59,256 nucleotides of DNA from Planctomycetia bacterium (GTDB lineage Bacteria > Planctomycetota > UBA1135 > UBA2386). The notes under the pieces were generated by a model. It was not told the origin of the DNA. It was given only the letters and a program-made list of their open reading frames with translations, and ran no database searches. The position numbers and the translations under genes are program-made. This document shows positions 6,572 through 47,085 of this stretch, piece by piece (the first letter of the stretch is position 1; each line of letters opens with the position of its first letter). Location of the stretch: positions 1 through 59,256 of the forward strand of contig SXPB01000094.1 of assembly GCA_005776475.1 (NCBI GenBank), written 5' to 3'.

Positions 6572-6572
6572 G

Positions 6573-7927: not shown

Positions 7928-7929
7928 GG

Positions 7930-20452: not shown

Positions 20453-22654
20453 TTATCCGCCCCCGATCACGGCCTCGGCTGCATCCGAAAGCACGGCCCC
20501 AAGCCCGTTGCCTGAGTTCGCATCGAGCAGCAGTGCTTGGTTGAAGAACCGAGTTCCCACTAGAGACGGGACATAGGGAATCGGGAGGAGCCAGCGGGCT
20601 TGGTTGGCCTGCCCTGGAAGCAAGACTGTGCCATCCACTTGCACGTGCAACAGGCAGCCGGGCGCTCCGACCACCGCCAACGACACCGGGGAGATCGATT
20701 GCCATCCGAACGCAAGCAGGGCCAAGTTGTCGGGCACGTCGAAGAGTGTCAATTCGAACGTGCGGCCGATGTGCGGAGTGTCGCGCGGCACGAGCCTGGA
20801 TGCTGGGCGAGAACCGGAACAACCTGGCGCGATACCCACGTAAGTCGAAGTTGGGCCGACGCGAGCCGCAAACAGGCCGTTGCCGGCGGTGACCTCGACA
20901 TACGAGGTCCCCGGTTGTAGCGGTGGCGGTGGATACGCGGGCCCGACGATGCCACAAGCATCGGCCAGCCCGTCTGAGCGACGCAGGACAGTGAAGCTGT
21001 AGCCCCCATCCAATTCCACGAAGTAGACACCGAACGGCAGCGTCGGGATCGGTCGCCAGGTCGAGACACCGGGTCCGAAAGAGCCCCACGCGACGACACT
21101 GCCATCCGAGCGAAGAGCGGTGTTGTAGTTGTGGGATCCCGCCGCTTCGACGTAGCGCAAGCCAGGTGGCAGTGCGGGAACGAGGCTGTTTCCCGAATAG
21201 GTTGTTCCAGCGTAGATCAGGTTGCCATCGGAACGCACGAGCAGTGTTTTCGCGTAACGCACATCAACACCGGTGTAGGTCATGCCGGTGAGGAGCGGGG
21301 GAAGCACCGTGCAGCCGAATGCATCGGGTCCAATCGCCACCGCCGCGCCGTCAGAGCGCAACGCTACGGAGTGATTGTCGCAGGCCGCGAAGTCGCGGTA
21401 CACAACGCCTGCGGGAAGTGGCGGCACATTGCACTGGCCGTGGCTGTTGGATCCCCAAGCAAACAGACTGCCGTCGATGCGGAGGGCCATGGTGTGCGTG
21501 GTGCCAACGCCGACCTTGGTAAACTGAGAAGTCACCAGCGGCGCCGGGATTGTCATCTGGCCGTACGTATTGCTGCCCCAGGTCTGGATCTGGCCCGTGC
21601 TCAGTACGGCCGCCGCGTGGATGCCACTGGTTGCGATCGAGGTGTAATGCACGCCGATGGGCGTATCTGGAAGGAACGGGATCGACGCCTGGTGGTTGGT
21701 GTTCTCTCCCCAGGCCAAGATGCGACCTGAAGTCGTCACAACCAAAGAGTGATTTGCTCCACACGAAAGCGATCGAACAGACTCCGTCAGGACAGGCACG
21801 TCGAGCTGACCAACGTAGTTGGCCCCCCATGCGACCAGTGCCCCGTCGGATCGGTAGGCAACGCTATGGTTCATTCCACCGGCAACAAACAAATAGCGTA
21901 GACCAGTCGGCGGCCCTGGTATGTTGCACTGTCCTGCGAAGTTCGATCCCCACGAGATTGCGGCGCCATCGGAACGAATCGCGAGGCCGTGGTCGCTACC
22001 TGCGGCAATCTCAGAATAGGTGATCCCCAGAGGTGGGGTAGGAACCGAGCATTGGCCCAGCGCATTGTCTCCCCAAGCAACCAAGGAGCCGTCGGACAGC
22101 AAGGCCAATGAGAATGCTACACCACCCCTAACTTGAACCGCTGGCCCTGGAAGCGATGGCACGTTGCAACAACCGAAACTAGTATCCCCCCAAGCAACTA
22201 CGGCCCCGTCAGATCGAATCGCGAGAAAGTGGGCGTGTCCGGACTCGACATCCAAATAGACAGTGCCCAAGGGCAACGGGGGAGCAGGTGTTGCCGGCAC
22301 AATTGGCGATTGGCCCCAAACTACGATGTTGCCATCCGATCGCAATGCAGCTGCCGCGTAGACATTGCATGCAATTTTGACCGTCGCGAGGCCTGCGGGA
22401 GGAGCCGGCATCTGCCCAAGGAATTTATTGACGCCGTTTATGAGTACCCGACCATCGGTTCTGACGACCGCTGTCAAGAGGTGGTTCGCAGTCGCCATCA
22501 GCGCCGGCGCCTGCATCGAGTCCGTGTCGCTCCCCCAGTCTCCCCAATGTACTACGGCGCTCTGTGCCCTGATAATCGATCCGGCTACGTTGGTCGCCCC
22601 AAAGGCGATCAACGGAGTGAAAGCGACAGCCAAGTTAAGCAAGCAGTGAGCCAT
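20453..22654 (-). CDS. Exported RCC1-repeat protein with lineage-type C-terminal domain
   Basis: Many G..HS.ALRSDG..VAWG.N..GQC.VP repeats; C-terminal GCSG...IP..PSLVG..F.NQALLLD..G...SD domain; lower GC than neighbours. Confidence 0.9.
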   Translation of the reverse strand: MAHCLLNLAVAFTPLIAFGATNVAGSIIRAQSAVVHWGDWGSDTDSMQAPALMATANHLLTAVVRTDGRVLINGVNKFLGQMPAPPAGLATVKIACNVYAAAALRSDGNIVVWGQSPIVPATPAPPLPLGTVYLDVESGHAHFLAIRSDGAVVAWGDTSFGCCNVPSLPGPAVQVRGGVAFSLALLSDGSLVAWGDNALGQCSVPTPPLGITYSEIAAGSDHGLAIRSDGAAISWGSNFAGQCNIPGPPTGLRYLFVAGGMNHSVAYRSDGALVAWGANYVGQLDVPVLTESVRSLSCGANHSLVVTTSGRILAWGENTNHQASIPFLPDTPIGVHYTSIATSGIHAAAVLSTGQIQTWGSNTYGQMTIPAPLVTSQFTKVGVGTTHTMALRIDGSLFAWGSNSHGQCNVPPLPAGVVYRDFAACDNHSVALRSDGAAVAIGPDAFGCTVLPPLLTGMTYTGVDVRYAKTLLVRSDGNLIYAGTTYSGNSLVPALPPGLRYVEAAGSHNYNTALRSDGSVVAWGSFGPGVSTWRPIPTLPFGVYFVELDGGYSFTVLRRSDGLADACGIVGPAYPPPPLQPGTSYVEVTAGNGLFAARVGPTSTYVGIAPGCSGSRPASRLVPRDTPHIGRTFELTLFDVPDNLALLAFGWQSISPVSLAVVGAPGCLLHVQVDGTVLLPGQANQARWLLPIPYVPSLVGTRFFNQALLLDANSGNGLGAVLSDAAEAVIGGG

Positions 22655-22733
22655 CGTAAGGATCAAAAAGAGAGGAAAGCGCTGGGCTGGCGGCTACGTC
22701 CGACTGACAGGTTGCCGTGTTGTGATGCGCCAA

Positions 22734-24188
22734 CTACTGCACGAGCCTGCCGAACGACGCCGTGAAGCGCGGCGACTCCGCCGGTGGCGCGACAATGCCT
22801 TGCAGGAACAGCGGCAGCCCCACCAGAGTCGGCTGGTTGGGGATCGCGAGCGCGAACGGTGACGCCGACCCGGGCAGTGTCGTCATCCCGGAGAACACGA
22901 CGCCCACGTTCAGGTCGATCGCGAGTTCACCGAACGGCGGCAGCGGGAACGGCGACGTGAGGCCGACGAGCGAGACTCCGAGCCCCGTGAAGTGCGGCCC
23001 CGTCGCGTAGCCCGGCTGGCTCCACACGACCGGCGTCCACGGCTGGCCGATCGCCGGCTGCCCCGGCACCAGATCGCGGTGCCGGTTGATCAGCAGCGTC
23101 GGCGGCAGGAACTGTTCGCACACCAGCAGGTCCATGTCCCCATCGCGATCGCAGTCGAACGGCAGCAACGCCGGCACTTGCCCACCGACGAGCGGATGCC
23201 GTGCCGCACCCGACGTGAAACCACCCAGGCCAAGGCCGAGTTGCAGGTCGAGGCCGGTGATGCCGCCACGCCACAGGTCGAGATCACCGTCGGCGTCGAC
23301 ATCCGCGAGTGCGAGCCGGTACGAGCCGTTGGGTCCAGTCGCGAGCGACACACCCGCCGCGAACGTGTTGCCGACGTCGAGCAGCACGTCGTCGCTGGCG
23401 ACCCCCTGCCGCGCCACGACGAGGTCGCGATCGCCGTCGCCGTCGAGGTCGCCGACGGCGACGTCGCGGATCGAGCCGGGCACCAGCCCGCCCACCCACG
23501 CCGCACTGACGTCGGTGAACGTGAAGCCGCCCTGGTTGCGCAGCACGAGCACGCCCCCGGTCGAGCCCAACACGAGGTCCTGGTCGCCATCGGTGTCGAT
23601 GTCAGCGGCGGCGATCGCGTTCGACCAGGTCGTCGGCAGCACGTTGAGGCGCGCGAACGCACAGTTGCCCTGGTTCGAGAACACCGCGTTGAGGCCGCCG
23701 GCCAGTGCTTGCCCGCTCGCGGCGATGTCGAGGTCGCCGTCGCCGTCGAGATCGACCCCGACGAGGTCGGTGTAGCCGCCCATGTCGGTGAACCCGGTAT
23801 CGACGAACGTGCCGGTGCCGAGGTTTCGCCACACCACCACGCCGCCCATCATCGAACTGAACACGTCGATGTCCCCGTCGCCGTCGAAGTCGGATGCGAC
23901 CGCGTGGCCGTTCGACATCATCATCGTCGACTGCGTCGGCAGCGCCGAGGCACTGACGTCGGTCCAGGCTTCGTTGCCGTCGTTGCGGTGCAGCCGTCGC
24001 GCCGGCATGCCGCCGAACAGTCCGATGCAGGAGAGCAGGTCGAGGTCACCGTCGCCGTCGACGTCGGCGGCGACCGACTCCTGCGGCCAGGCGCTGATGA
24101 TCGCGGTCGGCGTGCGGGCGACGAACTGCGTCTGGGCGAGCAATGGCGCCGAGAGCAGGACTACGAGGGTGGCGATGGTCTTCTGCAT
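22734..24188 (-). CDS. Exported FG-GAP/VCBS-repeat protein with C-terminal domain
   Basis: Signal peptide (LLA|Q); seven D.DGDGD.D-type repeats; C-terminal IPNQPTLVGLPLFLQG. Confidence 0.9.
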   Translation of the reverse strand: MQKTIATLVVLLSAPLLAQTQFVARTPTAIISAWPQESVAADVDGDGDLDLLSCIGLFGGMPARRLHRNDGNEAWTDVSASALPTQSTMMMSNGHAVASDFDGDGDIDVFSSMMGGVVVWRNLGTGTFVDTGFTDMGGYTDLVGVDLDGDGDLDIAASGQALAGGLNAVFSNQGNCAFARLNVLPTTWSNAIAAADIDTDGDQDLVLGSTGGVLVLRNQGGFTFTDVSAAWVGGLVPGSIRDVAVGDLDGDGDRDLVVARQGVASDDVLLDVGNTFAAGVSLATGPNGSYRLALADVDADGDLDLWRGGITGLDLQLGLGLGGFTSGAARHPLVGGQVPALLPFDCDRDGDMDLLVCEQFLPPTLLINRHRDLVPGQPAIGQPWTPVVWSQPGYATGPHFTGLGVSLVGLTSPFPLPPFGELAIDLNVGVVFSGMTTLPGSASPFALAIPNQPTLVGLPLFLQGIVAPPAESPRFTASFGRLVQ

Positions 24189-24271
24189 GGCGGGCGGCGC
24201 GCGATGGTAGCCGAGAGCGGCGATCCATGGGACGCGCCGCTATCCTGCTCACCCCCCGAACGAGCCACACC

Positions 24272-26002
24272 GTGACCGACTTGCACGCCCATCTCCGCAC
24301 CCGCCTCCTCGACGCCATTGCCGGGCTAGGGCTCGACCGTGCAGCCGCCGAGCCGTTGGTGCGTCTCGAACCGCCGAAGAACCGTGACCATGGCGACGTG
24401 GCGTTGCCCGCGTTCCAGCTGGCGAAGCTCGCCGGCAAGGCGCCGCCCGCGTTTGCGAATGAACTCGCCGCGCGCGTGACCGCCGATGACGTTGTCGAGT
24501 CGGCGACCGCGACGGGACCGTTCATCAACTTCCGCTTCCGTCGCGCGGCGCTGGCGCGCGCCGTACTCGAGGCGATCCAGTCCGGGGCCGCGCCGTACGG
24601 CAAGGCCGCTGCGAACGGCCAGGTCGTGTGCATCGACTTCAGTTCGCCCAACATCGCGAAGCCGTTCCACATCGGCCACATGCGCAGCACGACGATCGGC
24701 AACGCGTTGTGCCGCATCCATCGCCATACAGGCGCCACGGTGCACGGCATCAACCACCTCGGCGACTGGGGCATGCCGTTCGCGAAGATGATGACCGCCT
24801 ACATGCGGTGGGGTAACGAGCAGGAACTGCACGCGTCGCCGATGCGCTACATGTTCGAGCTCTACAAACGCTACGGCCGCGAGGTGAAGGAGAACCCCGG
24901 CCTCGACGCCGAGGCTGCGAAGCACTTCCAAGCGCTCGAGAGCGGCGCCGACAATGTCGAACGGCGCATGTGGCAACTGCTGCGCGACGAATCGCTGAAG
25001 GCGTTCCAGGGCCCGTACGCGCGGCTCGGCGTGACCTTCGACCACATCACCGGTGAGTCGTTCTTCGAGGACAAGATGGCGGGCGCGATGCAGCGCGTCA
25101 CCGCGTCGGGCGTGCTCGAGCAGAGCGAAGGGGCTGCAGTCGTCTGGCTGAAGGAGCTCGGCATCAAGGAGCCGTGCATCCTGCAGAAGAGCGATGGCAC
25201 GACGCTCTACCACACGCGCGACCTCGCGGCGGCGTTCTACCGCGAGGTGACGTTCCACCCGACGCGCATCCTCTACGTCGTCGGGGCCGAGCAGAAGCTG
25301 CACTTCGATCAGTTGAAGGGCGTGCTGACGAAGATGAAGGAGCCGGTCGCCAAGGCGGTCGAGCACGTGCCGTTCGGCCTCGTGCTCAGCAAGACCGACG
25401 ACGGCAAGTGGGAGAAGTTCGCGTCGCGCTCGGGCAACGCGGTGTTCCTCGACGAGATCCTCGACGAGGCGGTGGCGAAGGTGCGCGGCGTGATCCGCGA
25501 GAAGAACCCGGACCTCGCCGATGCCGACCAGATCGCCGAGCAGGTCGGCGTGTCGGCGATCGTGTTCAACGACCTGAAGAACTCGCGCATCAAGGACGTG
25601 AAGTTCGACTGGGAGTCGATGCTGCAGTTCGAGGGCGAGACCGGTCCGTACGTGCAGTACGCGTGCGCCCGGCTGTCGTCGATCCTGCGCAAGGCCGAGT
25701 GTCCGGTGCCCGCTGCCTCGGCGATCGACCACGGCGTGCTCGCCGACGCCGAGCGCGTGTTGCTGACGATGATGGACTTCGGCACCGCGGTGCAGAAGGC
25801 GGCCGAACAGAGCGAGCCGAGCCACGTCACCGGCCACACGATCGCGCTCGCCGGCGAGATCCACAGCTACCTGCGCGACCACTACGTCGTCGGCCAGGAA
25901 CCGAAAATCCGCGATGCGCGCCTCGTGCTGGTCGACGCCGCGCGGCGCCTGCTGGTCACCGGGCTCGCGCTGCTCGGGATCACGGCGCCGGAACGCATGT
26001 AA
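24272..26002 (+). CDS. argS: Arginine--tRNA ligase
   Basis: DFSSPNIAKPFHIGH, NHLGDWG, KSDGTTLYHTRD, YVVGAEQ, GETGPYVQY, C-terminal LGITAPERM. GTG start assumed. Confidence 0.97.
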   Translation: MTDLHAHLRTRLLDAIAGLGLDRAAAEPLVRLEPPKNRDHGDVALPAFQLAKLAGKAPPAFANELAARVTADDVVESATATGPFINFRFRRAALARAVLEAIQSGAAPYGKAAANGQVVCIDFSSPNIAKPFHIGHMRSTTIGNALCRIHRHTGATVHGINHLGDWGMPFAKMMTAYMRWGNEQELHASPMRYMFELYKRYGREVKENPGLDAEAAKHFQALESGADNVERRMWQLLRDESLKAFQGPYARLGVTFDHITGESFFEDKMAGAMQRVTASGVLEQSEGAAVVWLKELGIKEPCILQKSDGTTLYHTRDLAAAFYREVTFHPTRILYVVGAEQKLHFDQLKGVLTKMKEPVAKAVEHVPFGLVLSKTDDGKWEKFASRSGNAVFLDEILDEAVAKVRGVIREKNPDLADADQIAEQVGVSAIVFNDLKNSRIKDVKFDWESMLQFEGETGPYVQYACARLSSILRKAECPVPAASAIDHGVLADAERVLLTMMDFGTAVQKAAEQSEPSHVTGHTIALAGEIHSYLRDHYVVGQEPKIRDARLVLVDAARRLLVTGLALLGITAPERM

Positions 26003-26028
26003 GCGCGCGGTCGTTCGTCGGGCGCAGC

Positions 26029-26949
26029 TCAGCTCAGCGTGCGCTGGCCGATCGCGTGGGCGGAGAAGTACTCACCGATCGCAAACGACGCGCGGCGGCG
26101 TCCGCGACCCTGGTAGACGTTCTTCTGGCGGGCGTGGTCGACCACCGGCAGTACGCGGGCGTCGAACGTCACGCGCGTTAGCTCCGTCAGGTTGTGCGGA
26201 CCTGCGTGCAGGCACCGCGAGTCGAACAGCAGGATCTCGCCGACATCGAGGCGAAGGGGCTGGCAGATGCGTTCGCAGCGCGCCTGCAGGCTCGCATCGT
26301 TTTGCGTGTCGCGACCGAACGCAGCGAAGTTCCAGTCGTACTCGCGCAGCAGCTCGATGCTCTCGGGCAGTTGGGCCAGCAGCAGCGATCGCGTTGCTTC
26401 GCAGCGCACCAGCGGGAAGAACACGTTCACCTCGCGCGGGTTGTGCCCGATCATGAGGTCGTTGTGGTAGCTCGTGGCGCCTGGATAGCCGGGCGCGTGC
26501 GGGAAGAACACGCGGAACGTCGGCGTGCGCTGGAAGTGCGCCGGCCCGATTCCGATCGCTGGCACCACCACTTCGGTGAGCAGCCGCTCGTAGAGCGCGT
26601 GGAACGCCAACGGCATTTCGTAGAGCACGCGCGCCGCGGCGCTCTGCTGCGAAACGTCCATCGCCTGGTGCACCGGCGCGATCAGCTCGTGCAGGTGTTC
26701 GAGGCGGTCACCGCGTGCCGACAGCGTGCCGCGGTCGAGCATGCCGGCGGCAGCGAGCGCATCGCCGACGATCGCAACGAAGTCGAACTGGCGCGGGTCG
26801 TAGCGCAGCCGCGTCACTCCGGTCGGGAAGCGCTTCTGGAACGGGCTCGTGCGTTCCATGTCGGCGACGAACTCGGCACGGAAGCCGGGCTCGGTGTAGT
26901 TCGCGTAGTCGGGAGCCTGGCCGGTGGACGTCGTGTACGTGGTCGTCAT
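26029..26949 (-). CDS. StrG-like / PhyH-type Fe(II)-2OG dioxygenase
   Basis: FQRTPTFRV; HND...H facial triad (YHNDLMIGH, CLHAG); TRVTFDARV. Confidence 0.75.
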   Translation of the reverse strand: MTTTYTTSTGQAPDYANYTEPGFRAEFVADMERTSPFQKRFPTGVTRLRYDPRQFDFVAIVGDALAAAGMLDRGTLSARGDRLEHLHELIAPVHQAMDVSQQSAAARVLYEMPLAFHALYERLLTEVVVPAIGIGPAHFQRTPTFRVFFPHAPGYPGATSYHNDLMIGHNPREVNVFFPLVRCEATRSLLLAQLPESIELLREYDWNFAAFGRDTQNDASLQARCERICQPLRLDVGEILLFDSRCLHAGPHNLTELTRVTFDARVLPVVDHARQKNVYQGRGRRRASFAIGEYFSAHAIGQRTLS

Positions 26950-26950
26950 G

Positions 26951-29900
26951 TCAGACCTGCATCGCTTCGGGAACGGAATCTGGTTCGAGCTTGCTGCCGT
27001 CGCGCATCCGCTGTGCGAGCACGGTCCGGTAGGGCTCACAGCTGCGGGCGGCGCGCAGAACGTCGTCGCTGCCGGGCAGACCGGTTGCGTCCAGCAGGTT
27101 GGCGAGCGCCAGGCGCAGCGACAGCATCTCGGGCAGCTGGGTTGCGGCCGCACGCAGCAGGCACGCCGCAGTCGAGGTGTCGCCGTACAGCAAGGCGGTG
27201 CCGAGGAACCGGTCGAGGTTGACGGCTTCGAGCAATTGCGCAGGGGTGAGGATCCCGAGGCGCGCGTGGCTTTGGGCTTCTTCGACGATGCCGGGAGCGA
27301 GCAGCGTGCAAGGCAGCGGACGCTGCGCCACGAACGGCAGCGCGGTGCTCGGTGGCGCCAGCTCCGCTCGCGCCCGCGCCACAGCGGCGAGGTCGCAGGC
27401 CGGATCGCGCAGATGTCGCCAGGCGGCACGGGCGGGGCTCGTCGACAGCAGCGTCGACAACTGCACCGCTTCCGCAGTGGCCAGCGCGGCCAACCAGAAG
27501 GCGTACTCGGCGGCGGCGCCGTAGGTCGGGTCGAAGGGGCCGAGCCGATCGTGCAGCGATCGCCGCCACATCGGATGCGAGCCGATGCCGTTCTTGGTCG
27601 GCAGACGCAAATGCGCCGCCGGTGGCGGGCACGTGAAGCCGAGACACGACACGGGTTCGAAGCGGCCGACGAGCCCGTTGGTCCAACCTTCCGTGCCGAA
27701 CGCGACGGCAGCCTGCGGTCGTCGATCGAGACCATCGGCGAGCAACGCGAACGCGTCGGGACGGAAGCGGTCGCCGGGCATCGCCACGGTCAACAGCGGT
27801 GCGGTCGAGGTGGCGGCGCAGGCCGACAAGCGAGTTGCCCATGACGTCGACTCGGGCACGGACACCCAGCGCACCGCAGCGAAGCCCCCGGCGGCCGGGT
27901 GTCGCGTCAGTGCCGACGAAGTCGCGATGACCACTTCGCAGCAGGCGGCGCGATTCTGGTTCTCCAGTTCGGCGAGCAGGTCGGTGAGTTCCCCGTCGTT
28001 GCCCGCGAGCGGGATGAGCACGGCGATCGCGGCGGCTTCGCTGATGCCACGCTCCCGTTCTGGTGTCGCCGTCGCCGCCGACTTTGCCTCGCGCCGCTCC
28101 ACTGCGAACACTTCATTCGCGCGCAAGTTGGCGTCGAAGGTGTCGACGTCCATGCGGAGTGCCGCGCGCAGCGAAGTGTCGCCGACGAGCTCGCGGGTCG
28201 CGGCTTCGCCCAACTCGTTCACCAGCAGGCGCGTTGCCGTTGCGAACTCGGAAGATCCTTCGGCGAGCTCGCCGAGCAGTCCGAGCGCGCGAGTGCGACC
28301 AGTGTCCCCGCCCCGGCGCAGCAACGCCTTGGCGAGATCCAGGCGGAACCGCGCGAAGGCCGGGTTCCACGCGACGGCCAATTCGTGCAAGGCAGGCTTG
28401 CCGGTCTTGCGCGCGACGTAACCGGCGAGCGCCGCCAGCACGATCCGCGCGAACTCGATGGTTGCGACAGCGCCGCCCTTCTCGGCGTGCGTCACGAGAT
28501 CGAGGTAGCTGCGGAAGTCGAAGCAGTCCTCGTGGAAGTCGAACGGCATCACGTCGTCGTGCGGGCCGATCTGCCACCGGGCCGGATCGCCTTCGATGGT
28601 GTCGAACGCCAGCTGCAGTGCGCGCATTCGCTGCGCTGCGTCGCCGTGGTGCCACAGCGTGCGCACCAACAGGAAGCGCGCCGCGAGGTGTTCGGGCCAC
28701 AACCGGATGCACTTGTCGAGCAGCCCGATTGCATCGGTCAACATCGCGCGTTCGCTCGCTTCGCACTGCCGGATCTTGTCGTAGTACGCGAACTCGCACA
28801 GCAGTTCGCGCGCCATGTCGACGAGGGTCGATGCCTTCGCCTTCTTCTTCAGTTGCGCGCTGAGGTGGCGGAAGTTGGCCTGCATCGTCCGCCGCCGTAC
28901 CGACGGTTCGTCGGGCACCCACGAGCGCGACATGCACATCCGTTTCTGCGTCCACGACGAAGCATCGACTGCCTGGCGAGCCGGGCGGGGTGCCGCCGCG
29001 CGGAAGGTCAGGAAGCGGAAGTACTGCGAGGCGACACGCGGCATCGCGAACTCCGCGCGCACGACTTCGGCGCCGATGCGTGCCGCCGGCCCGAACTCGT
29101 CGTGGTGGTCGAGCAGGCGTCGCACGGCCTTGGCCAGATCGCCTGGCTCGTTGCCGTACGTGGTGACGCCGTGACGCTCATCGACCCACAGCCGGAGGCT
29201 GCATTCCTGCTGCAACGCGATCGTGCAGCCGAGCGCCAGCGACTCGAGTCCGCGGGTCGGCATCGCGCCCGGTCGGCGCACATACGTGAACGACGCCTTG
29301 CTCGCCGCCAGCAAGGCGTGGAACGCCATCGTGCCGGCGAAGCCGCGCACCACGCGCAGGTCGATGCCCGGCATGCCGAGCAATTCGTGCAGCAACCGCG
29401 CCTTGTCCGGGTGGTACGGATCCAGCATCGTGCCGGACACGAAGAAGTCGAGGTGGCGCGGGCCGACGGGGATCGGCGCGATGCCATTCGGCAGTCCGAA
29501 GACCTTGGGGAACGACGACACGAGCCCCTTGCCGAGCCCTTGCACGTCCAGCCATTCACTGCGGTCAGTGACGCACAGTTCGTCGAACAGGTCGAGCCAC
29601 GGCCGGATCGTCTGGATGTGCAGGTCGTGATCCGCGAGGTGCCCGAACAGCGGACACTGCAGCTGCTGCAGGTTCGGTGGCAGGTGGTGCCACTCGACCA
29701 TTGCCGTGGTGAAGAAGTCCGGCACGAAGCCGTCGCCCAGGAACGACTCGACACTGGCGTAGGGACGATTGCGCGCGTCGCCGGTGCGATGGCCGATGGT
29801 GCGCACTTCGAACCGGGGGTCGTGGCGGATGCCGCCACCGAGATCGGTCATCGCGCCGTCGGCCCAGGGCAGTTGCGCCAACACGCGGATCTTCGGTTGG

Positions 29901-31164: not shown

Positions 31165-31332
31165 TCCTTCACCTCTCGGCATCAGGCATCGTCGAGACGG
31201 GTTCCGGTTCTTGATAGGGGAGTGACCCTAGGCCTCTTGCCACCGGAGGAATGCGACCGTCGGCGCCCCGGTCGGGCTCAATTCGCGGCGGGGCGACGGT
31301 CGATGTGCGAGGCGATGGGGAGGATCGGTGAA

Positions 31333-32160: not shown

Positions 32161-32168
32161 GGCGAGCA

Positions 32169-33101: not shown

Positions 33102-33105
33102 TCCG

Positions 33106-34299: not shown

Positions 34300-34335
34300 G
34301 GTCGAAGCAGCCTCGCCTCCACCCGGTGGTGCCGG

Positions 34336-36753: not shown

Positions 36754-37259
36754 GCATCACCTCGCAGTCGCCGTTCGATGCACTCGCGCAGCAACGCCCG
36801 AACGCGCTGCAGCAGCGTCTTCACGCCCGTTTCCTTCATGCCGAGCCGCGCCGCGACGTCTTCGCGCGCCAGCCCGTCGCCGTAGAACCGTTCCACCGCC
36901 TCGCGCGCGCGCCCGTCGAGTTCGCCAACGCACGCGCGCAGCGCGTCGCGCCACCGTTCCCCGTCGTCGGCGCCACAATCGCGCACCCACGCCGAGTCGG
37001 CATGTTCGAGCAGCAGCTGTTCCCGCCGGCCCGCGTCGCGTCGCCGCCGCAGCCACAGATGCTTGCAGGTCTGCCGCAAGAACGTCGCCACCGCGGCATC
37101 GCCGCGGTCTTCGCCGAGCTTGCGCATCGCCACCAGGAAGGTGTCCTGCAGCAGGTCCTCGGCCTCGGCGGCCGGCACGCCGAGCGCGCGCGCGTAACGC
37201 CACAGCCCGAGTTGGTGCCGTCGCACGAGGGCGCCGAGGTCGAACGCGGGCGGGTTCAT
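36750..37259 (-). CDS. ECF RNA polymerase sigma factor
   Basis: Region 2 (LWRYA..AEDLLQDTFL); region 4 (EDVAARLGM...VKTLLQRVR). Confidence 0.9.
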   Translation of the reverse strand: MNPPAFDLGALVRRHQLGLWRYARALGVPAAEAEDLLQDTFLVAMRKLGEDRGDAAVATFLRQTCKHLWLRRRRDAGRREQLLLEHADSAWVRDCGADDGERWRDALRACVGELDGRAREAVERFYGDGLAREDVAARLGMKETGVKTLLQRVRALLRECIERRLRGDA

Positions 37260-37390
37260 GCGCTTGGCAAAAGGTGGCGTGGCGACGGGCGGCACGTGCC
37301 GTTCATCCCGTGCGGCGGCGCAGGGTATTCGACGGACTCGGGAATCTCCCCAGGTGCACGAAGAGAACCCCAGGGCACACTGCCCCCTGC

Positions 37391-38617: not shown

Positions 38618-38633
38618 ACGCGCGTCAACGGCG

Positions 38634-39116
38634 TCACTGCCACCGCATGCCGTCGATGAACTCGAGCGGGCCTCCGCACGCATGCGAATGGCAGTTCACG
38701 CAGCCATCGATGATCGAGTTGAACGTCGCCTTCTTCGGCTCCGCGTCGAACGCGCGCACCGCGGCGAGGTAGCCCTGCGCCAGCGTGTCGAAGCGTTCGT
38801 GGCGCTCCTCGGGTTTGGTCGGCCACGCGCAGCGCATCTTGCGATGGGTTGCGAACATCGCCGGCACCTTCTCGCCTGCTTCGGCGAGCGTGCGCGCGTT
38901 GCGCAGGTCGTCGACGAACACGCGCATCAGCGCCGACAGTTCGCTGTCGCCGTTGGGGTTGCGGGACGACTTGATCAGGTTGCCCGGACTGCCCGGAACG
39001 CCGGGCACGAGCGGCGTCGACAGGTTGCAGTCGGCGTCTTCGGCAACGGTCTGGATCGCGGCAGGACTCGAGCACGCCGTGAACAGGAACAGGAACGACA
39101 GCAGAAGCAGGCGCAT
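38634..39116 (-). CDS. c-type cytochrome lipoprotein (cytochrome c'-like)
   Basis: Lipobox FTAC; NPNGDSELSALMR; CVNCH near the C-terminus. Confidence 0.75.
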   Translation of the reverse strand: MRLLLLSFLFLFTACSSPAAIQTVAEDADCNLSTPLVPGVPGSPGNLIKSSRNPNGDSELSALMRVFVDDLRNARTLAEAGEKVPAMFATHRKMRCAWPTKPEERHERFDTLAQGYLAAVRAFDAEPKKATFNSIIDGCVNCHSHACGGPLEFIDGMRWQ

Positions 39117-39215
39117 GGGCGAATAGCGTGGAAGGCGCCGGATGGTCGGCGGCGACGCGACGACGCGCAATAGGCACGCTTCGGTGGTGCGCGGAATGGC
39201 GCGTAGCATGCGCGC

Positions 39216-40226
39216 GTGCGTCCCGTCGCCAATCCGCCGAACCCCTGGGCCACGAGCCACGTCGAGTGGCTCGGTGAGCCGCCGACGGATGGCGTGCACA
39301 TCTTCGAAGAGGACGCGAAGTCGATCCTGTCCGAGAACGACAGCCCCGATCTGCCGTTCCGTTGGTCGCTCAACCCGTATCGCGGCTGCTTCCACGGTTG
39401 CGCGTACTGCTACGCGCGGCCGACGCACCAGTATCTGGGCTTTGGCGCCGGCACCGATTGGGAACGTCGGCTCGTCGTGAAGCGCAATGCGCCCGAACTG
39501 CTGCGCGCGCACCTTTCGCGCTCGAGCTGGAACGGCGAGCTGATCATGTTCAGCGGCGTCACCGACTGCTACCAACCGCTCGAAGCGAGCTACCAGCTGA
39601 CGCGCCGTTGTCTCGAAGTGTGCCGCGAGTTCCGCCAGCCGGTCGGCGTGATCACCAAGGGCGCCCTGGTCGAACGCGATGTCGATGTGCTCGCTGACCT
39701 CGCGCGGCATGGTGCGGCGACGGTGTTTCTCAGCGTGCCGTTCGCGGACGGCGCCGACTCGCGCGCGATCGAGCCGTTCGTGGCGTTGCCCGAGCGTCGC
39801 TTCGCGGCGATTCAGGTGCTCGCCAGTGCTGGCGTGCCGGTCGGCGTGTCGCTGTCGCCGCTGATTCCCGGACTCAACGACCACCAGGTGCCGGAGATCC
39901 TCGAGCGCGCGCGCGCCGCCGGGGCGACGTCCGCGTTCCACGTGCTGCTGCGCTTGCCGGCCGAAGTCGAGGACGTGTTCGCGGCGCGGCTGCGGGCGGC
40001 GTTCCCGCTGCGGGCCGAGAAGGTGCTGTCGATCCTGCGCTCGATGCACGACGGCAAGGCCAACGATCCGCGCTTCCACGAACGCATGCGCGGTCAAGGT
40101 GCGCGGTATGAAGTCGTCGCGAACCTGTTCCGCACGGTGGCGAAGCGTCTCGGCCTCACGCCGCCGGAGCGACCGGGGCCGTCACCGTTCCGCCGCCCGT
40201 TCCAGCAGGGCTCGCTGTTCGGGTGA
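39216..40226 (+). CDS. PA0069/Rv2578c-family radical SAM protein (spore photoproduct lyase-like)
   Basis: NPYRGCFHGCAYCYARPTH, TDCYQPLE, ITKG and C-terminal QGSLF. Confidence 0.92.
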   Translation: MRPVANPPNPWATSHVEWLGEPPTDGVHIFEEDAKSILSENDSPDLPFRWSLNPYRGCFHGCAYCYARPTHQYLGFGAGTDWERRLVVKRNAPELLRAHLSRSSWNGELIMFSGVTDCYQPLEASYQLTRRCLEVCREFRQPVGVITKGALVERDVDVLADLARHGAATVFLSVPFADGADSRAIEPFVALPERRFAAIQVLASAGVPVGVSLSPLIPGLNDHQVPEILERARAAGATSAFHVLLRLPAEVEDVFAARLRAAFPLRAEKVLSILRSMHDGKANDPRFHERMRGQGARYEVVANLFRTVAKRLGLTPPERPGPSPFRRPFQQGSLFG

Positions 40227-40428
40227 GGGATGGATTCCTGCGTTCGCCTGACGCGAACACGGGTGGATTTCGGCGGTCTGGCGCCGGAAGGAGCCGGTTG
40301 ATCTGGTCGTGTGGCGAGACACCTGGCGAGCGTTCGCTGCGGCGACCACTGCCAGGTTTGGCTTCGACGAGCCGTCCGCGTTTCAGCGATTCTCTACCCG
40401 TCCCCCGCTATCCTGCTCGCCCTTCACC

Positions 40429-41790
40429 ATGCGCGACAAGGTTCTCATCGGTTACGGCCAGGGCTTCTGGGGCGACTCGATCCTCGGCCCCGTGCGTCTC
40501 GTGCGCGAAGGCCCGCTCGACTACCTCGCCCTCGACTACCTCGCCGAAGTCACCATGAGCATCATGCAGAAGCTCAAGGGGCGGAATCCGAAGGCGGGTT
40601 ACGCCACCGACTTCGTCGCGATGCTCGACCGCACGTTGCCCGACATCACGAAGAAGGGCATCAAGGTGATCGCCAACGCCGGCGGCGTGAATCCGCAGGC
40701 TTGCCTCGACGCCGTGCTCGACCTCGCCCGCAAGAAGGGCATCAAAGGGCTGAAAGTAGGCATCATCGAGGGCGACGACATCCTCACGCGCATTCCCGAG
40801 CTGCTGCGCACCGGCCACGACCTGAAGAACATGGACGACGGCCGCGCCCTGTCGGCGGTGCAGTCGAAGCTGCTGAGCGCCAACGTCTACATCGGCGCCT
40901 TCGCGGTCGCCGAGTGCCTCGCTGCCGGCGCGCAGATCGTGATCGGCGGCCGCCTCACCGACCCGGCGCTGGTCGCCGGCCCGATGATCCACGAGTTCGG
41001 CTGGAAGGCCGGCGAATGGGACAAGCTCGCCGCGGGCACGATGGCCGGCCACATCGCCGAGTGCGGCGCGCAATGCACCGGCGGCAACTACACTGGCTGG
41101 CGCGAGGTGCAGGACTTCGTGCGCATCGGCTACCCGATCATCGAGGCCTCGCCCGATGGCACGTTCGTCGTCACCAAACACGACGGCACCGGTGGCCTGA
41201 TCAACCGCAACACGGTGGTCTCGCAGCTGCTCTACGAGATGGGCGATCCGAGGCGCTACCTCGGCCCCGACTGCACGGCGGACTTCACCTCGGCGAAGAT
41301 CGAGGAAGTCGGCAAGGACCGCGTGCGCCTGTCCGGCATCAAGGGCGGCCCGGCGACGCCGACCTACAAGGTCTCGCTCAGCTACCTGAACGGCTTCAAA
41401 ACCACGGGCCAGCTCACGGTCAGCGGTCCCGATGCGGTGGCGAAGGCCAAGCTGTGCGCCGACATCGTCTGGGGCCGTCTCGCGCTCGACGGCTGCACAT
41501 TCGAAGAACACCAGAAGATGGTCGAGATCGTCGGCGCGGGCGTCTGCCACGCCGGCATCAACGAATCGGCGAACCCGCCCGAAGTCTTGCTGCGCCTCGG
41601 CGTGAAGTGCGACGACGAGGACAAGGTCGACCGCTTCGGCATGGAGATCGTGCCGCTCGTCACGAGCGGCCCACCCGGCGTCACCGGGTACGCCGGTGGT
41701 CGCCCGAAGGCGACCGACATCGTCGGCTACTGGCCGGCGCTGCTCGACAAGACGACGGTGCAGACGAAAGTTCGCGTGGAGGTGTCGTGA
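40429..41790 (+). CDS. Acyclic terpene utilization AtuA (DUF1446) family protein
   Basis: GFWGD, DYLAEVTMS, NAGGVNP, GHIAECGAQCTGGN and QLLYE. Confidence 0.9.
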   Translation: MRDKVLIGYGQGFWGDSILGPVRLVREGPLDYLALDYLAEVTMSIMQKLKGRNPKAGYATDFVAMLDRTLPDITKKGIKVIANAGGVNPQACLDAVLDLARKKGIKGLKVGIIEGDDILTRIPELLRTGHDLKNMDDGRALSAVQSKLLSANVYIGAFAVAECLAAGAQIVIGGRLTDPALVAGPMIHEFGWKAGEWDKLAAGTMAGHIAECGAQCTGGNYTGWREVQDFVRIGYPIIEASPDGTFVVTKHDGTGGLINRNTVVSQLLYEMGDPRRYLGPDCTADFTSAKIEEVGKDRVRLSGIKGGPATPTYKVSLSYLNGFKTTGQLTVSGPDAVAKAKLCADIVWGRLALDGCTFEEHQKMVEIVGAGVCHAGINESANPPEVLLRLGVKCDDEDKVDRFGMEIVPLVTSGPPGVTGYAGGRPKATDIVGYWPALLDKTTVQTKVRVEVS

Positions 41791-42104
41791 TGGCGAAGGT
41801 CAAACTGGGTTCGTTCGCGTTCGCGCGCAGCGGCGACAAGGGCGACGGCAGCAACGTCGGCGTGTTCGTCACCAATGCGAAGGACTACGAGATCATCAAG
41901 GCGCAGCTCACGGTCGAACGCGTGAAGCAGCACTTCCATGCGATCTGCAAAGGCGAGGTGACGCGCTACGAAGCACCCAACATGCTGGCGCTGAACTTCC
42001 TGCTGCGCGATTCGCTCGGCGGCGGCGGCAGCGAGAGCCTCAAGACCGACGCGCAGGGCAAGACGCACGGCCTCGCGCTGCTCGAACTCGAGGTCGAGCG
42101 CTAA
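41790..42104 (+). CDS. AtuA C-terminal-like small protein
   Basis: ARSGDKGD.SNVG, VTRYE, LGGGG..SL.TDAQGKT; start overlaps the upstream stop. Confidence 0.9.
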   Translation: MAKVKLGSFAFARSGDKGDGSNVGVFVTNAKDYEIIKAQLTVERVKQHFHAICKGEVTRYEAPNMLALNFLLRDSLGGGGSESLKTDAQGKTHGLALLELEVER

Positions 42105-42243
42105 GTAGTCGGCGAAGTCGCCTGGCCAGAGCTCGATGGTCCGTCGCCGCCCCAGGCCATGCGCATGGCGGGGATGTTGGCGGTGCGCGCCTTTCGGTAG
42201 AGTGGCGATGCTCGCGGCGCCGCGGGCGCGGATCGTTTGCCCA

Positions 42244-43646
42244 ATGAAGCCCTGGTTGCCGTTCGTCTTCTTCGTTGCCCCGGTGGTTGCTCAAGCGAAC
42301 TGGTCGCTGCAGTCAGCGGCCGGGCTTGGCCAGCGCGAAGGCCACCGCTTGGTCTACGACCCAGCGACGCAGCGCACGTTCTCGATGTGGGGCACGACCT
42401 ACATTTCGACCTACACTTGTTCGATGTGGAATGGCTCGTCGTGACACCGAGTAGTGTGTCGTCCAGCGGCTTGCTGCTCGTCGGCCGCGACGTCGCGCTC
42501 GCGAGCAACGGCGGCGCTGGCGGCATGCTGATGTTCGGCGGTTGGCGACCGGGTTTTGGCATTGGTGGCGGCACGCCGACCGTGCTCGATCAGACCTGGA
42601 ACGTGGTTGCCACCGCGGGTGGCTCGCTGCAGTTCACGCTCCTGGCGCCGGCGACGCGCCCGTCGGCGCGCCAGGGGGCGAGCATGGTCCTCACCAACCA
42701 GGGGCCGCTGTTGTTCGGCGGCGCGGCGGTCAGCGGAGTCCCCGTCTATGGCGACACATGGCGTTGGAACGGCACGACGTGGTTGCAACTGACGACGCCC
42801 GTCGCGCCCGCTCCGACGGCTTACAGCGCGATGGCCTACGATGGCGCTCGCAACGTCGTGGTGCTGTTTGGCGGCTTCACCAGCAACGAGACCTGGGAGT
42901 TCGATGGCGTTGCATGGCATCAGCGCGCGCCGGCGCAGAGTCCGCCCCCGAGGGCACGAGCCGCGTTCGCCTGGTCCCCGGTGGCAGGCAAGTGCGTTCT
43001 GTTTGGGGGTGCTGGCACCACCACGCAGTTCGGCGACACCTGGACTTGGGATGGAACGGCGTGGCAGCAACTGCTCTCGCTCGGCGCGCCGTCCCCACGG
43101 CAGGGTGCAGCGATGACGTTCGACGCCGCGCAGCAGAAGCTCGTGCTGTGCGGCGGCAGCTACTACACCCCGCAATCGACGACGTGGTACGAAGATACGT
43201 ACTACGTCGAGCTGCTGGCGGGGCAGGCTAGCTACACGCCGTTCGGAGCTGGATGTCCCGGTCCGACGGCGCAGGTTCCCGTGTTCGCCGCGGCGGCGAA
43301 CGAGTTGCCGGTGCTGGGCACGACGTCGCACCTCGTGGTGTCGAACCTGCCCATTGCGCTGACGCTGCCGGTGTTCGTCCTCGGCACGAGCAATGCATGG
43401 GAGCCGAGCTCGAACCATCCGCTGCCGTTCGACCTCGGCTTCATCGGCTGGCCGGGCTGCCAGCAACTCGTCTCGCACGATTTGCTCACCGCCGTGCCGA
43501 CACTCACCGGCACCGCGAGCCTCGCGTTCGTGGTGCCGGTAAACGCCGCGCTCGTCGGCCTTTCGTTCCATTCGCAGGCCCTCGTGCTGTACCAGCCGAG
43601 CGGCGCCGCGGTGAGCAACGCTCTGACTGGCGTCGTCGGGTTCTGA
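42244..43646 (+). pseudogene. Exported Kelch-like repeat protein with C-terminal domain, frameshifted at about 42443
   Basis: Frame 1 (MKPWLPF..VVA|Q..WNGSS) stops at TGA 42442-42444. The Kelch repeats (LFGG..DTW.WDG..W) continue in another frame. Adding one G restores TGG-ACA-CCG (W-T-P). Confidence 0.75.
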
Positions 43647-43769
43647 CCTCGTCTCTGCTCGAGGAGCAATCGCGCAGCGACGAACCCGAACTGGTGCCGC
43701 ACGCCTCGCGGCACGAGGTTGACGTACGCCTGACGTAACTGCGGGCACGCGCTTTGCTACAACTCTGGT

Positions 43770-45119
43770 ATGGCGTCCCCAGACCCGTTGTTCGCGGTTG
43801 CCGTATTGGTGGTCTTCGCTGCCAGCGCAATCGCCCAGAAGGAGGTAACACCGATCGTGCGCACGCCGGATGCGGCGGCTTCGGCACGGCGTCAGGCGAT
43901 GCAGAACATTGCCCTGGCGCTCGCGGTGCCAACGACGGATGCCAACGATCCGCAGGCGGGGTTGCTGACCGAAGCGGACATGGAAGCGATCGCGCATTTC
44001 CGTTCCGCCACCACCACGGCCACCGGTTTCGAGTTGCTGGTCGCCACCGCCGCGGCGTCGCCGCCGTTCGTGGCGCGGCGAGCGTTCGTGGCTTTGCGCG
44101 ACGCGCACATGGTGGGCAATCCCGCGCGGACCATTCCGTTGTTGCTGGCGGCGATCGATCACCCCGATCCCATCGTTGCCGCCACTGCGATGCCGGTTCT
44201 TGCCCGGTGCACCCGCTACGCGTTGCCGCCGGAGCTTCGCGCCAGCGTCGTCGCGGCTGGCGTCGCGGTATGGCCGAAGGACATGCTCACGCTGCAGTGG
44301 ATCGCGCCAGAGACGTCGAGTCCCACGCATCCGGCGTGGGGTGCCATCGATCCGGCGCACAAGGTCTTCCGGCTCGTCGCGATTGCGGTGGGCACCGGTG
44401 ACCGCAGCTTGATCGACCGGCTGGTGCCGCCGCCGGGCGCCAAGGCTCCGGACCCCAAGGACGATCGCTACCCCCACTACTCATGGTTCGTGCGCAACTG
44501 TCTCGCCCGCGCGGCGCCGAACGTCGATGACGACACGTCGCGCATGCTGTGCAGCTGGTTTCTGCCCGCCGCGAGCGATCGCACACACAACCAGAACGAC
44601 CAACACTGGGCCGAACTGGCCCTCGACGTGCTGTTCGGCGTGTATTGCCATGCGCCCGCGGACCTGCACCCGAACTTCTCCACGCTGCTGCAGAACCGGG
44701 ATGCCAACAACGGGTTTCGTCGGCGGCTGAAGTCGCATCCGGTTCCCGAGGCGCAGTTGCGCCTGCTGTTGCGCCCGCTCGAAGCCGAGTTCGATCGCGA
44801 CCTCGTGTTGGCGTTTCCCGACTACGTGGCGACTGCGATTGCCGGCACCGAAGCGCAGCGAAAGAGCATCGTGGATTTGCTGCAGTGGAAGGTGTGGGTG
44901 CAGGACAACGAGCCACGCGTCGGCCAGACGCATCTGACGGCGGCACACTGGCGCGCGATGCTCGAGGTCCTCGACACGTTGCCGGCGGCGGAACGCGTCG
45001 ACGTGCTCGGCTACATGTTCCAACGCGACCATCTGGCGAACTGGGGCATCGATGTGCAGCCGGCGATGCTGCGTGCCTGCGTCGAACGCGACGCCGCGCG
45101 CAAGCGCATGGCGCGGTAG
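43770..45119 (+). CDS. Exported hypothetical protein (helical, HEAT-like)
   Basis: Signal peptide (AIA|Q); AIDHPDPIVAATA HEAT-like unit. Confidence 0.65.
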   Translation: MASPDPLFAVAVLVVFAASAIAQKEVTPIVRTPDAAASARRQAMQNIALALAVPTTDANDPQAGLLTEADMEAIAHFRSATTTATGFELLVATAAASPPFVARRAFVALRDAHMVGNPARTIPLLLAAIDHPDPIVAATAMPVLARCTRYALPPELRASVVAAGVAVWPKDMLTLQWIAPETSSPTHPAWGAIDPAHKVFRLVAIAVGTGDRSLIDRLVPPPGAKAPDPKDDRYPHYSWFVRNCLARAAPNVDDDTSRMLCSWFLPAASDRTHNQNDQHWAELALDVLFGVYCHAPADLHPNFSTLLQNRDANNGFRRRLKSHPVPEAQLRLLLRPLEAEFDRDLVLAFPDYVATAIAGTEAQRKSIVDLLQWKVWVQDNEPRVGQTHLTAAHWRAMLEVLDTLPAAERVDVLGYMFQRDHLANWGIDVQPAMLRACVERDAARKRMAR

Positions 45120-45381
45120 CGCCGCGGCTCAGCGGGCGTAGAGGCCAGCCGGGGCCCAGCAGGCGCCCGGACCACCGTCGTGACCATCGAGACCGATGGG
45201 CTCTCGATCGGGCCAGGGTGGACGGCGGTGCAGGGAATCGGCCCACTTCCTCGGCCGTCAGGGTGGCGCCCAGAAGGGCCACGGACAGGAGTGCGTTCGG
45301 ATTCATGCCAGGGTCATCCGGAACCTGGCCGCGTGTTGCAGCCATTCCGGTGCCCCGGCACTCGCCCGGCCGAACGCCCGG

Positions 45382-47085
45382 TCAGAAGGGGCGATCGCCG
45401 AGCACGTAGCTGGCGTCGTTCGACACGGTCAACCCGAGCGAATTGACCACCGGGTCGAAGCACAGCGCCTGCTGGTAGATCTTGAGTCCGAGCGCCGACG
45501 GCGTCCAAGCGAACTGGTAGCCGTACTCACCGTTGCCGGAGGCGTCGGTCAGCACCGCGATCATGATCAGCGGATCGACGCGCACGTAGCATGGCGTCGG
45601 CTGGTTCTGCGGATCGAGGCCGCCGTAGCTGATCAGGAACGGCAACGGGATCGAGCCGTAGCCGAGCGTGTTCGAGGTGCCGATCATGCCGACCACGAAC
45701 GACGACGCGAACGCGCGTTCGACGCGCGTGATGAACGTCGAGCCGAACGCCGGCGTCTCGCCGCTCATGTAGCCGAGCAGCGGGCGCAGGCCGTTGCTGC
45801 CGATGCAGGCGTTGGTCGAGGCCGGTTCGACGCGCGTCGTCGTCGAGACGTAGAGCGCCGGCGTGGAGCCGGTGTGCAGCAGGTAGTTGCCGGTGACCGC
45901 GATCGTCGGGCCCGCGACGCTCAGGTAGTAGACGCCAGCGCGTTCGATCGTGAAGACCATCTTCGCGTGCGTGGTCGAGCCGCCGGAGGCCGTGGTCACC
46001 AGGGTGCCCGCCGCGTCGTAGAGGCGCAGCGTCGAGCCCGCGAGCGGAGTGCCGCCGGTGCCTTCGGCCATCGCCCCGAATGTCGTTGCGCCAGCGCTCG
46101 TGAACAGGAACCAGTCCTCGTCGAGGCTGCCGGTGGTGTTGCCGGTCAGGTCGTCGCCGGGGTTGAACGCGCCCGCGAACGTGGTGGTCGTGTTGTTCGG
46201 CTCCACGCCTTCGGCGGTCGTGTTCGAACCGGGCATGTCGATGAGGGCCGTGCGCAGCGAGTACTTGCCGAGCTTGGTGTAGTCCCACGGCGGCGTGCCG
46301 GCGGCGGCGGTGCCGCCCTTCACGGCGATCGCGTAGCTGCCGGCGAGCAACATGCCGGGATGCGTCAGGTTGGTGATGCGGTGGCTGGCCGAGTTCGACA
46401 CATCCCCAAGACCGATCGCGGTCCAGGCGCCGGGGCCGCCGGTGTGGTAGCGCAGCGCCAGGTTGTCCGCCTGCGGCACGCCGCCGTCGTCGTAGGTGGC
46501 GGCGAGCACGATGCCACGGCCGGTCAATTGGAACGCCCAGTAGTCCTCGTCGGCGGGCGCGCTGACGACCAGTTCGCCTTCCAGCGTGTCGCCGAGAGTG
46601 AATTGCGTCGGCGCGTTGGCCGCGCCGTTCGGTTCGGCGGCTTCGACGGTGTCGATCGGATTGACCGGGTGCACGTAGAAGTCGAGGTCGTAGGCGACCG
46701 CGGTGCCCGACTTGAGGGCGACGCGGGCGACGTAGGAACCCGCCGGCAGGGTCACGCCGCAGTCCGCCATCGTGCCGACGGCGCCGTCGTTCCAGGCGAG
46801 GCGCGTGGTGCCGGTGGCGTCGTAGAAGGCGATGCGGTTGTCGCGCGACAGGCCCAGCAACAGCGTGCCGTTGGCGACCGTGTGCAGGTGGACCTGGCCG
46901 GGCGCCGTCAGGGTGAACGAAAACCAGTCTTCGTCGGCCGTAGTCGCGTAGCTGGCCGCGATGTGCATGCCGGACGTGATCGGCATCGCCGTGGCGGCGG
47001 TGTCGTTCGGTTCGACTTCGTTGACCTTCTGGGCGGGGAGCGTCGCAACCACGGTGGCAGCGGCGAGCAGGGTGAAGATGCGCAT
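45382..47085 (-). CDS. Exported PPC-like (pre-peptidase C-terminal) repeat protein with C-terminal domain
   Basis: Signal peptide (LPA|Q); three E.EPN...DED(W/Y).F repeats; C-terminal QQALCFDP..NSLGLTVSN. Confidence 0.85.
   Translation of the reverse strand: MRIFTLLAAATVVATLPAQKVNEVEPNDTAATAMPITSGMHIAASYATTADEDWFSFTLTAPGQVHLHTVANGTLLLGLSRDNRIAFYDATGTTRLAWNDGAVGTMADCGVTLPAGSYVARVALKSGTAVAYDLDFYVHPVNPIDTVEAAEPNGAANAPTQFTLGDTLEGELVVSAPADEDYWAFQLTGRGIVLAATYDDGGVPQADNLALRYHTGGPGAWTAIGLGDVSNSASHRITNLTHPGMLLAGSYAIAVKGGTAAAGTPPWDYTKLGKYSLRTALIDMPGSNTTAEGVEPNNTTTTFAGAFNPGDDLTGNTTGSLDEDWFLFTSAGATTFGAMAEGTGGTPLAGSTLRLYDAAGTLVTTASGGSTTHAKMVFTIERAGVYYLSVAGPTIAVTGNYLLHTGSTPALYVSTTTRVEPASTNACIGSNGLRPLLGYMSGETPAFGSTFITRVERAFASSFVVGMIGTSNTLGYGSIPLPFLISYGGLDPQNQPTPCYVRVDPLIMIAVLTDASGNGEYGYQFAWTPSALGLKIYQQALCFDPVVNSLGLTVSNDASYVLGDRPF

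Follow-up and report, generated by a model that had tools for sequence, protein, structure and literature searches.

Four proteins encoded in a 59,256-nucleotide stretch of DNA from a planctomycete (Planctomycetia bacterium, GenBank assembly GCA_005776475.1, contig SXPB01000094.1, positions 1 to 59,256; hereafter the window) end in copies of one undescribed domain family; in this uncultured organism about 5% of the proteins have it as their last domain. The upstream parts of the four proteins are unrelated: RCC1, FG-GAP and Kelch repeats and a PPC domain. The function that we tentatively prefer for the shared tail, with somewhat less than even confidence, is that of a self-sufficient module that is retained on its carriers and anchors them to the cell surface or matrix.

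The RCC1-repeat protein, predicted to be exported (737 residues; 20453..22666, minus strand), was assigned by the Pfam families WD40_RLD and RCC1_2 and ends in a 132-residue tail domain with both conserved cysteines (20456..20851, minus strand), which was recovered by profile at E 1.7e-28 and modelled with AlphaFold. The FG-GAP repeat protein, likewise predicted to be exported (484 residues; 22734..24188, minus strand; Pfam FG-GAP_3, E 4.6e-33), begins in translation with the signal peptide MQKTIATLVVLLSAPLLAQ and ends in a divergent copy lacking cysteines (22737..23117, minus strand), detected by an iterated profile. On the plus strand, the Kelch-repeat protein (469 residues; 42237..43646; Pfam Kelch families) carries its copy at 43221..43643 (plus strand; profile E 2e-28), with both cysteines in the alignment. 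The PPC-domain protein, also a predicted exported protein (581 residues; 45382..47127, minus strand; Pfam PPC), has the signal peptide MRIFTLLAAATVVATLPAQ and a tail at 45385..45837 (minus strand; profile E 3.3e-20), in which the alignment placed both cysteines and an inserted loop. No convincing signal peptide was found in the window Kelch protein as assembled, the start of which is ambiguous; a clear one is present in its homologue P0164 (35% identity, 341 columns) and in an RCC1 homologue with an 83% identical tail. Public data hold many PPC orthologues of about 570 residues bearing the same tail. No relative of the window RCC1 protein was found when it was used as a query in the genome contigs searched for related loci. 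Within the window, a profile search confined the tail domain to these four frames.

In pairwise BLASTP, the RCC1, Kelch and PPC tails aligned with 27–29% identity across 139–149 columns (E 2e-12 for RCC1/Kelch, 2e-5 for RCC1/PPC and 8e-6 for Kelch/PPC). The FG-GAP tail did not match the other three significantly (best E 0.02); it was matched at E 1e-10 once the profile had been iterated on the genome's own frames, and it shares 44% identity with the tail, also without cysteines, of an FG-GAP paralogue (L068). Judged from these sequence matches, it is a divergent, Cys-less member of the family. For the census, the 5.2-Mb genome (75.65% complete) was translated in six frames, and all 33,856 reading frames of 80 residues or more were searched. 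A profile of the three mutually similar tails (RCC1, Kelch, PPC) already matched 106 frames (E ≤ 0.01), with 98 of the matches C-terminal, that is, ending within 10 residues of the stop. After five rounds of iteration the count at E ≤ 1e-5 stood at 188. With the final profile it was 190, and 175 at E ≤ 1e-10; none of the 33,856 frames matched at E ≤ 0.01 when reversed. Profile E-values of the family reached 1e-48. By a crude count of 3,573 genes, the 188 carriers make up about 5%. A search of public proteins matched 16,440 cluster representatives (E ≤ 0.001), of which 9,185 reach 1e-10, the named entries being hypothetical proteins of metagenome-assembled genomes labelled 'Planctomycetes bacterium' or 'Planctomycetota bacterium'.

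The original prediction, made from the letters of the window, held that four exported proteins end in a similar module, three copies having two conserved cysteines and the FG-GAP copy none. BLASTP, the profile searches and the passengers verified by Pfam confirmed the module; the alignment confirmed the distribution of cysteines; and the motif then proposed differs little from the consensus of the profile (G-x-G-C ... LP-x-LG ... PLP ... G-x-PGC ... IP ... L-x-G ... Q ... SN ... IG). A resemblance by chance or composition might be suspected in frames of such high GC content (64–71% in the window, rich in Gly, Ala and Pro), the more so as the FG-GAP tail was not significant pairwise. That explanation is refuted by the empty search of reversed frames, the strength of the profile matches, the thousands of public representatives at E ≤ 1e-10 and the confident structural model described below; we give it practically no weight.

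The domain is about 126–135 residues long. AlphaFold, given 24 aligned tails, returned a 10-strand all-beta structure (predicted local distance difference test, pLDDT, 96.1; predicted template-modelling score, pTM, 0.86), and a beta-sandwich fold is confidently predicted. The model of the FG-GAP tail was also all-beta, at a pLDDT of only 66.5, and its second half kept the same order of strand, short helix and strand. Conserved residues are mainly Gly, Pro, Cys and hydrophobic, with a polar Gln and Ser-Asn on neighbouring late strands. Both members of the cysteine pair were present in 94 of the 188 copies, neither in 42 and one only in 52 (Fisher p 1e-14); with a looser window for the first cysteine the counts were 120, 27 and 41. 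Such co-variation fits a disulfide and would imply folding outside the cytoplasm. In 148 of the 174 C-terminal copies the chain runs just 1–2 residues past the last conserved Gly. The 25 residues upstream of the tail held no Pro/Thr/Ser-rich or otherwise distinctive linker or motif. A prediction of a two-copy complex (score 0.00, mark 0.42) was neutral on self-association.

Known families did not account for the tail. The last ~130 residues of the four window tails matched no Pfam or NCBIfam family at E ≤ 0.1, and the tail profile had no match at E ≤ 1 among PDB sequences. Foldseek against the PDB returned generic beta-sandwich neighbours only, with template-modelling (TM) scores ≤ 0.5; an exhaustive structural search reached a best Z of 8.1, to macroglobulin (MG) and Ig-like domains, which led the list at Z 7–8, a level seen without a true relative. 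Rows naming GM2-activator, NPC2 and Der f 2 also appeared, and were not taken as a sign of a lipid-binding fold (TM ~0.3; root-mean-square deviation ~12 Å). The 30 nearest ESM Atlas clusters carried no Pfam family and were mostly from Planctomycetota. In the 84 carriers scanned against Pfam (see below), named binding and anchoring modules (carbohydrate-binding modules (CBMs), SLH, dockerin, PKD, FN3, Big, CARDB and others) did not match the tail, and every best Pfam stretch listed lay upstream of it. No description of the domain was found in the literature listings and abstract openings that we searched.

The passengers were surveyed in 84 of the 188 carriers: the four of the window, the 20 with the best scores and a random draw of 60 out of the 152 other complete carriers. 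Thirty-five had no Pfam family upstream. The others carried DUF5122/Rax2 propellers (13), Kelch (9), FG-GAP (5), RCC1 (4) and PKD (3) domains, BNR, di-haem cytochrome c peroxidase and DUF4394 (2 each), and GSDH, CHRD, LVIVD, LTD, sulfatase, LamG, beta-lactamase fold, HpiC1-like and PPC (1 each). With so many unrelated passengers, a high copy number and no database name, the description of a portable terminal domain on diverse exported proteins was upheld. In a quick tree of 81 tails (three short ones dropped), those on DUF5122 (13 of 13), RCC1 (4 of 4) and PKD (3 of 3) passengers each formed a single clade, and Kelch and FG-GAP tails were scattered, all with weak support. The passenger-specific clades point to expansion mostly by whole-gene duplication, atop older shuffling. 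Those same clades, in which tail and passenger would largely have co-evolved, together with the mostly structural conservation of the domain, would suit a structural or assembly cap that stabilises or folds its passenger or joins proteins into a coat. The scattering of Kelch and FG-GAP tails, the occurrence of one domain on very different folds and the existence of copies with no passenger at all speak against such a cap, and we consider it very unlikely.

Many carriers have a textbook Sec signal peptide at their start; public homologues of the window RCC1, Kelch and PPC proteins have one too. By one crude pattern, starts resembling signal peptides were found in 122 of 176 carriers against 533 of 1072 controls, and by a second in 89 of 161 carriers against 653 of 1959 other genes. 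Passengers such as di-haem cytochrome c peroxidase, sulfatase and GSDH were also counted in favour of a location outside the cytoplasm. Members of the tail family are taken to be exported. As a separate observation, carrier signal peptides often end in Ala-Gln by a crude pattern (41 of 161, as compared with 167 of 1959 other genes); examples are the FG-GAP and PPC gene starts in the window (24188 and 47085), and public homologues are alike. Mature proteins with such signal peptides may begin with Gln. A type-II glutaminyl cyclase (PF05096) had no match in the genome, in a search in which the controls did match.

The position of the domain is strongly biased: 174 of the 188 copies end within 10 residues of the stop. 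Among public proteins, the best 150 of the 16,440 representatives were all C-terminal, and in 236 of 237 examined (the best-scoring, hence a biased sample) the domain lay within 5 residues of the C-terminus. The remaining 14 copies of the genome do not close their frame; six are N-terminal, one internal and seven extended. The six N-terminal copies directly follow the signal peptide, with the remainder of the protein downstream; two have Kelch propellers there, one has a metallo-beta-lactamase fold and the rest have no assigned family. Kelch proteins can hence carry the domain at either end. One frame (C333:5374-6069) consists of signal peptide and domain only, and the same stand-alone arrangement was seen in 5 of the 237 public proteins, most other short entries being truncated Kelch proteins. 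The seven extended copies (C8:6594-8177, C237:19472-20623, C68:10290-11639, C128:7369-8499, C168:30206-32563, C239:3061-4281 and C32:10163-11227) have an extra 35–45 residues that end in an alternating hydrophobic/aromatic stretch (e.g. VVRF, RFY); they may be a sub-type with two added strands.

These placements bear on the analogy that had been drawn between the tail and two known tags, the C-terminal domain (CTD) of the type IX secretion system (T9SS) and PEP-CTERM. The analogy holds for deployment, the domain being portable and high in copy number, and is weakened for strict C-terminality, with seven of the 188 copies N-terminal or internal and seven more extended. Internal occurrence had been named beforehand as grounds for refutation, and these copies go part of the way towards it. 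In its fullest form it would make the tail a cleaved sorting signal, a folded domain read by a dedicated outer-membrane translocon and cut off by a sortase-like peptidase, which may join the cargo to a lipid or glycan of the surface. The extreme C-terminal site and fixed end of most copies, the hundreds of carriers per genome with unrelated passengers, the Ig-like beta-sandwich as in T9SS CTDs and the lineage-restricted spread would all be expected of it. The six N-terminal copies and those without cargo would not, nor would the lack of a recurrent neighbour gene and the failed co-occurrence of both candidate partners in the window (see below). Matches to known T9SS families were also not found: the tails matched neither TIGR04183 nor PF18962 at E ≤ 0.1, the sole TIGR04183 match (17.2 bits; cut-off 23) lay outside the tail at residues 364–405 of the PPC protein, and PF18962 (Por_Secre_tail) had no match genome-wide at E ≤ 0.001. 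SprA, PorP/SprF, GldM and Peptidase_C25 were not found in the incomplete genome, which is weak evidence since the control genomes matched nothing either; absence of a T9SS domain from the top 50 structural neighbours does not exclude a relation. On balance a cleaved signal of this kind appears unlikely, and a C-terminal export signal explains the non-C-terminal and stand-alone copies less well than a self-sufficient module does.

The same copies could be read differently, since placement at either end and stand-alone occurrence are typical of CBMs. The tail would then be a lectin- or CBM-like module directed not at the cell's own envelope but at an external substrate, such as a polysaccharide, a prey or host surface, or a particle. 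CBMs and a glucan-binding domain do occur among the weak structural neighbours, at Z about 7, and the conserved Gln and Ser-Asn on neighbouring late strands also favour this reading. The passengers do not: a hydrolase- or dehydrogenase-type domain was seen in just 3 of the 84 carriers scanned (sulfatase, beta-lactamase-fold hydrolase, GSDH-type) and a glycoside hydrolase in none, and most are propellers or lack a Pfam match. No Pfam CBM matched the tail, and a single substrate-binding module on about 5% of genes would be unusual. We regard binding of an external substrate as improbable.

The distribution of the domain among related organisms is uneven. It was present in 40 of 41 relatives, most with at least 100 copies, and in 81 of 101 genomes sampled from the class (a single order). 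Families f1, f7, f8, f2 and f6 had tens to hundreds of copies; every genome of family f9 (21 of 21) had 1–6; and in family f10 the domain was found in 38 of 58 genomes, mostly as 1–3 copies, and missing from 20. Across the phylum it occurred in 54 of 301 sampled genomes of scattered families, and four large families had none (0/15, 0/15, 0/10 and 0/10 genomes). The low copy number in f9 is what would be expected of an ordinary domain expanded in some lineages.

The partners proposed for the tail were a locus resembling a type II secretion system (T2SS), GT-C enzymes and DsbD; the first two were examined by co-occurrence. The T2SS- or type IV pilus-like cluster (window 855-12248) encodes two pseudopilins, T2SSF, T2SSE with an MshEN domain, and a 987-residue secretin fused to a C-terminal TPR region. 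This secretin was tried as a receptor for the tail and rejected: 4 of 12 same-genus genomes with 72 to more than 100 tails had no orthologue-level match, one of them 95% complete, and such a match was present (286 bits) in the tail-less genome G027. A polytopic membrane protein (48633-50699, plus strand), with at least five hydrophobic segments and no Pfam or NCBIfam match, is probably one of the proteins taken as GT-C. It has two paralogues in the genome (C69:3608-5518 and C255:8535-10496), and all three members lie within three genes of a carrier (3/3, p 0.01), one of them 4 bases away on the same strand. The family is widespread in the class and was also rejected as a partner; it was found in all 20 tail-less f10 genomes, in none of 21 f9 and none of three f2 genomes, and was missing from 4 of 12 tail-rich f1 genomes. 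Two of the three candidates, the secretin and the presumed GT-C protein, are disfavoured by their failure to co-occur with the tail. As for the third, DsbD (N-terminal and membrane domains; 55420-58050, minus strand, followed by a thioredoxin-like frame) would fit a disulfide in the tail and its handling in the periplasm, but is a general housekeeping function.

Neighbourhoods of the carriers were no more informative. No gene family was significantly enriched within three genes of the 188 carriers; the best had 39 members, 17 of them near carriers (p 1.3e-3 uncorrected, no longer significant once corrected), and consists of large proteins (e.g. C12:7861-11751, C331:7053-10445). At the low-copy loci inspected for a recurrent neighbour, a BNR-repeat protein alone recurred: in two low-copy genomes (G032 and G039; L025:1982-6354 and L027:2296-6401) the carrier lies two genes after it in a conserved local gene order. 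This carrier has 580–600 residues and no Pfam match, and is not an orthologue of the window PPC protein. In the window itself, a 169-residue frame with a CBM_2 cellulose-binding-type domain (19930-20436, plus strand; Pfam E 1.9e-12) is convergent to the RCC1 gene, 17 bases beyond its 3' end.

The anchoring module that we tentatively prefer would operate as follows: carriers would cross the inner membrane by Sec, and folding and oxidation would take place in the periplasm before they arrive at the surface; the tail would supply retention, not translocation. Staying on the mature protein, it would tether otherwise soluble exported proteins (beta-propellers, PKD/CHRD/PPC proteins and some enzymes of periplasmic type) by non-covalent binding to a single shared component of the envelope or extracellular matrix. 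Our preference for such a module over a C-terminal signal comes from copies that are N-terminal or lack cargo, from lineages with few copies, and from the absence of a linker, of a cleavage-like motif and of any neighbour or machinery that tracks the tail.

Several points weigh against this preference. The extreme C-terminal bias (174/188 here; 236/237 among the best-scoring public proteins) and a chain end 1–2 residues past the fold are at least as compatible with recognition of the C-terminus as with a binding module. Copies at the N-terminus or standing alone are few, and their function could be derived. Conservation mostly of Gly, Pro, Cys and hydrophobic residues appears structural, and no ligand, binding pocket or receptor was identified, the structural neighbours being generic (Z 8.1; TM ≤ 0.5). 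The signal-peptide enrichment is modest (55% vs 33%) and its heuristic weak, the many candidate starts scanned in GC-rich DNA giving false positives. Finally, the T9SS searches were made without a positive control in a genome that is 76% complete. In a further alternative, the tail could be the address tag of a sorting and surface-attachment system of a deep planctomycete class, unrelated to T9SS, sortases and exosortases, with the N-terminal and cargo-less copies as secondary uses. We hold this to be doubtful, on a par with the cleaved signal discussed above.

In several bacterial phyla, surface proteins are sorted or held by means of shared terminal domains, and each tag that has been understood (LPXTG, PEP-CTERM, the T9SS CTD) exposed new machinery. 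Here one unnamed domain, with 16,440 public cluster representatives, marks about one gene in 20 in an uncultured class of Planctomycetota. Naming it would annotate a large share of the exported proteins of these organisms, and its ligand or machinery, once found, would reveal how the surface of these planctomycetes is built. Copies at the N-terminus or on their own, together with the failed co-occurrence of the candidate partners, narrow the search towards an envelope component that is bound, as opposed to a partner of T2SS or T9SS type.

Among known systems, the T9SS CTD of Bacteroidota (type A; TIGR04183/PF18962) is similar: like most copies of the tail, which is predicted to be an Ig-like beta-sandwich too, it closes many Sec-exported proteins that are otherwise unrelated. 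Carriers number tens to hundreds in a genome, and the spread is lineage-restricted. T9SS CTDs usually have 70–100 residues and seven strands; the tail domain is larger (126–135 residues, 10 strands), shares no sequence match with those models, has a co-varying cysteine pair and is in some copies N-terminal or stand-alone. PEP-CTERM/exosortase, LPXTG/sortase and GlyGly-CTERM/rhombosortase systems likewise place a C-terminal tag on many exported proteins, paralogous and unrelated, in restricted lineages. Their tags, like MYXO-CTERM, are a short motif, a membrane helix and a basic tail, whereas ours is a folded all-beta domain whose chain ends 1–2 residues past the last strand, and the NCBIfam sorting-signal models did not match the tails. 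Dockerins are similar in deployment: small terminal modules on up to hundreds of exported proteins, mostly C-terminal and sometimes elsewhere. They are calcium-binding helical modules of ~70 residues, the tail is a beta-sandwich, and few of its carriers are enzymes; no scaffold protein with repeated receptor domains turned up, no systematic search having been made for one. SLH domains, other cell-wall-binding modules and dockerins are all retained on exported proteins and attach them non-covalently. The tail has no sequence or specific fold relation to SLH-type modules (no Pfam match among the 84 carriers scanned) and its C-terminal bias is much stronger. It resembles them in a copy number that depends strongly on lineage, in being self-sufficient at either end of a protein and in the retention on one envelope polymer that we propose for it.

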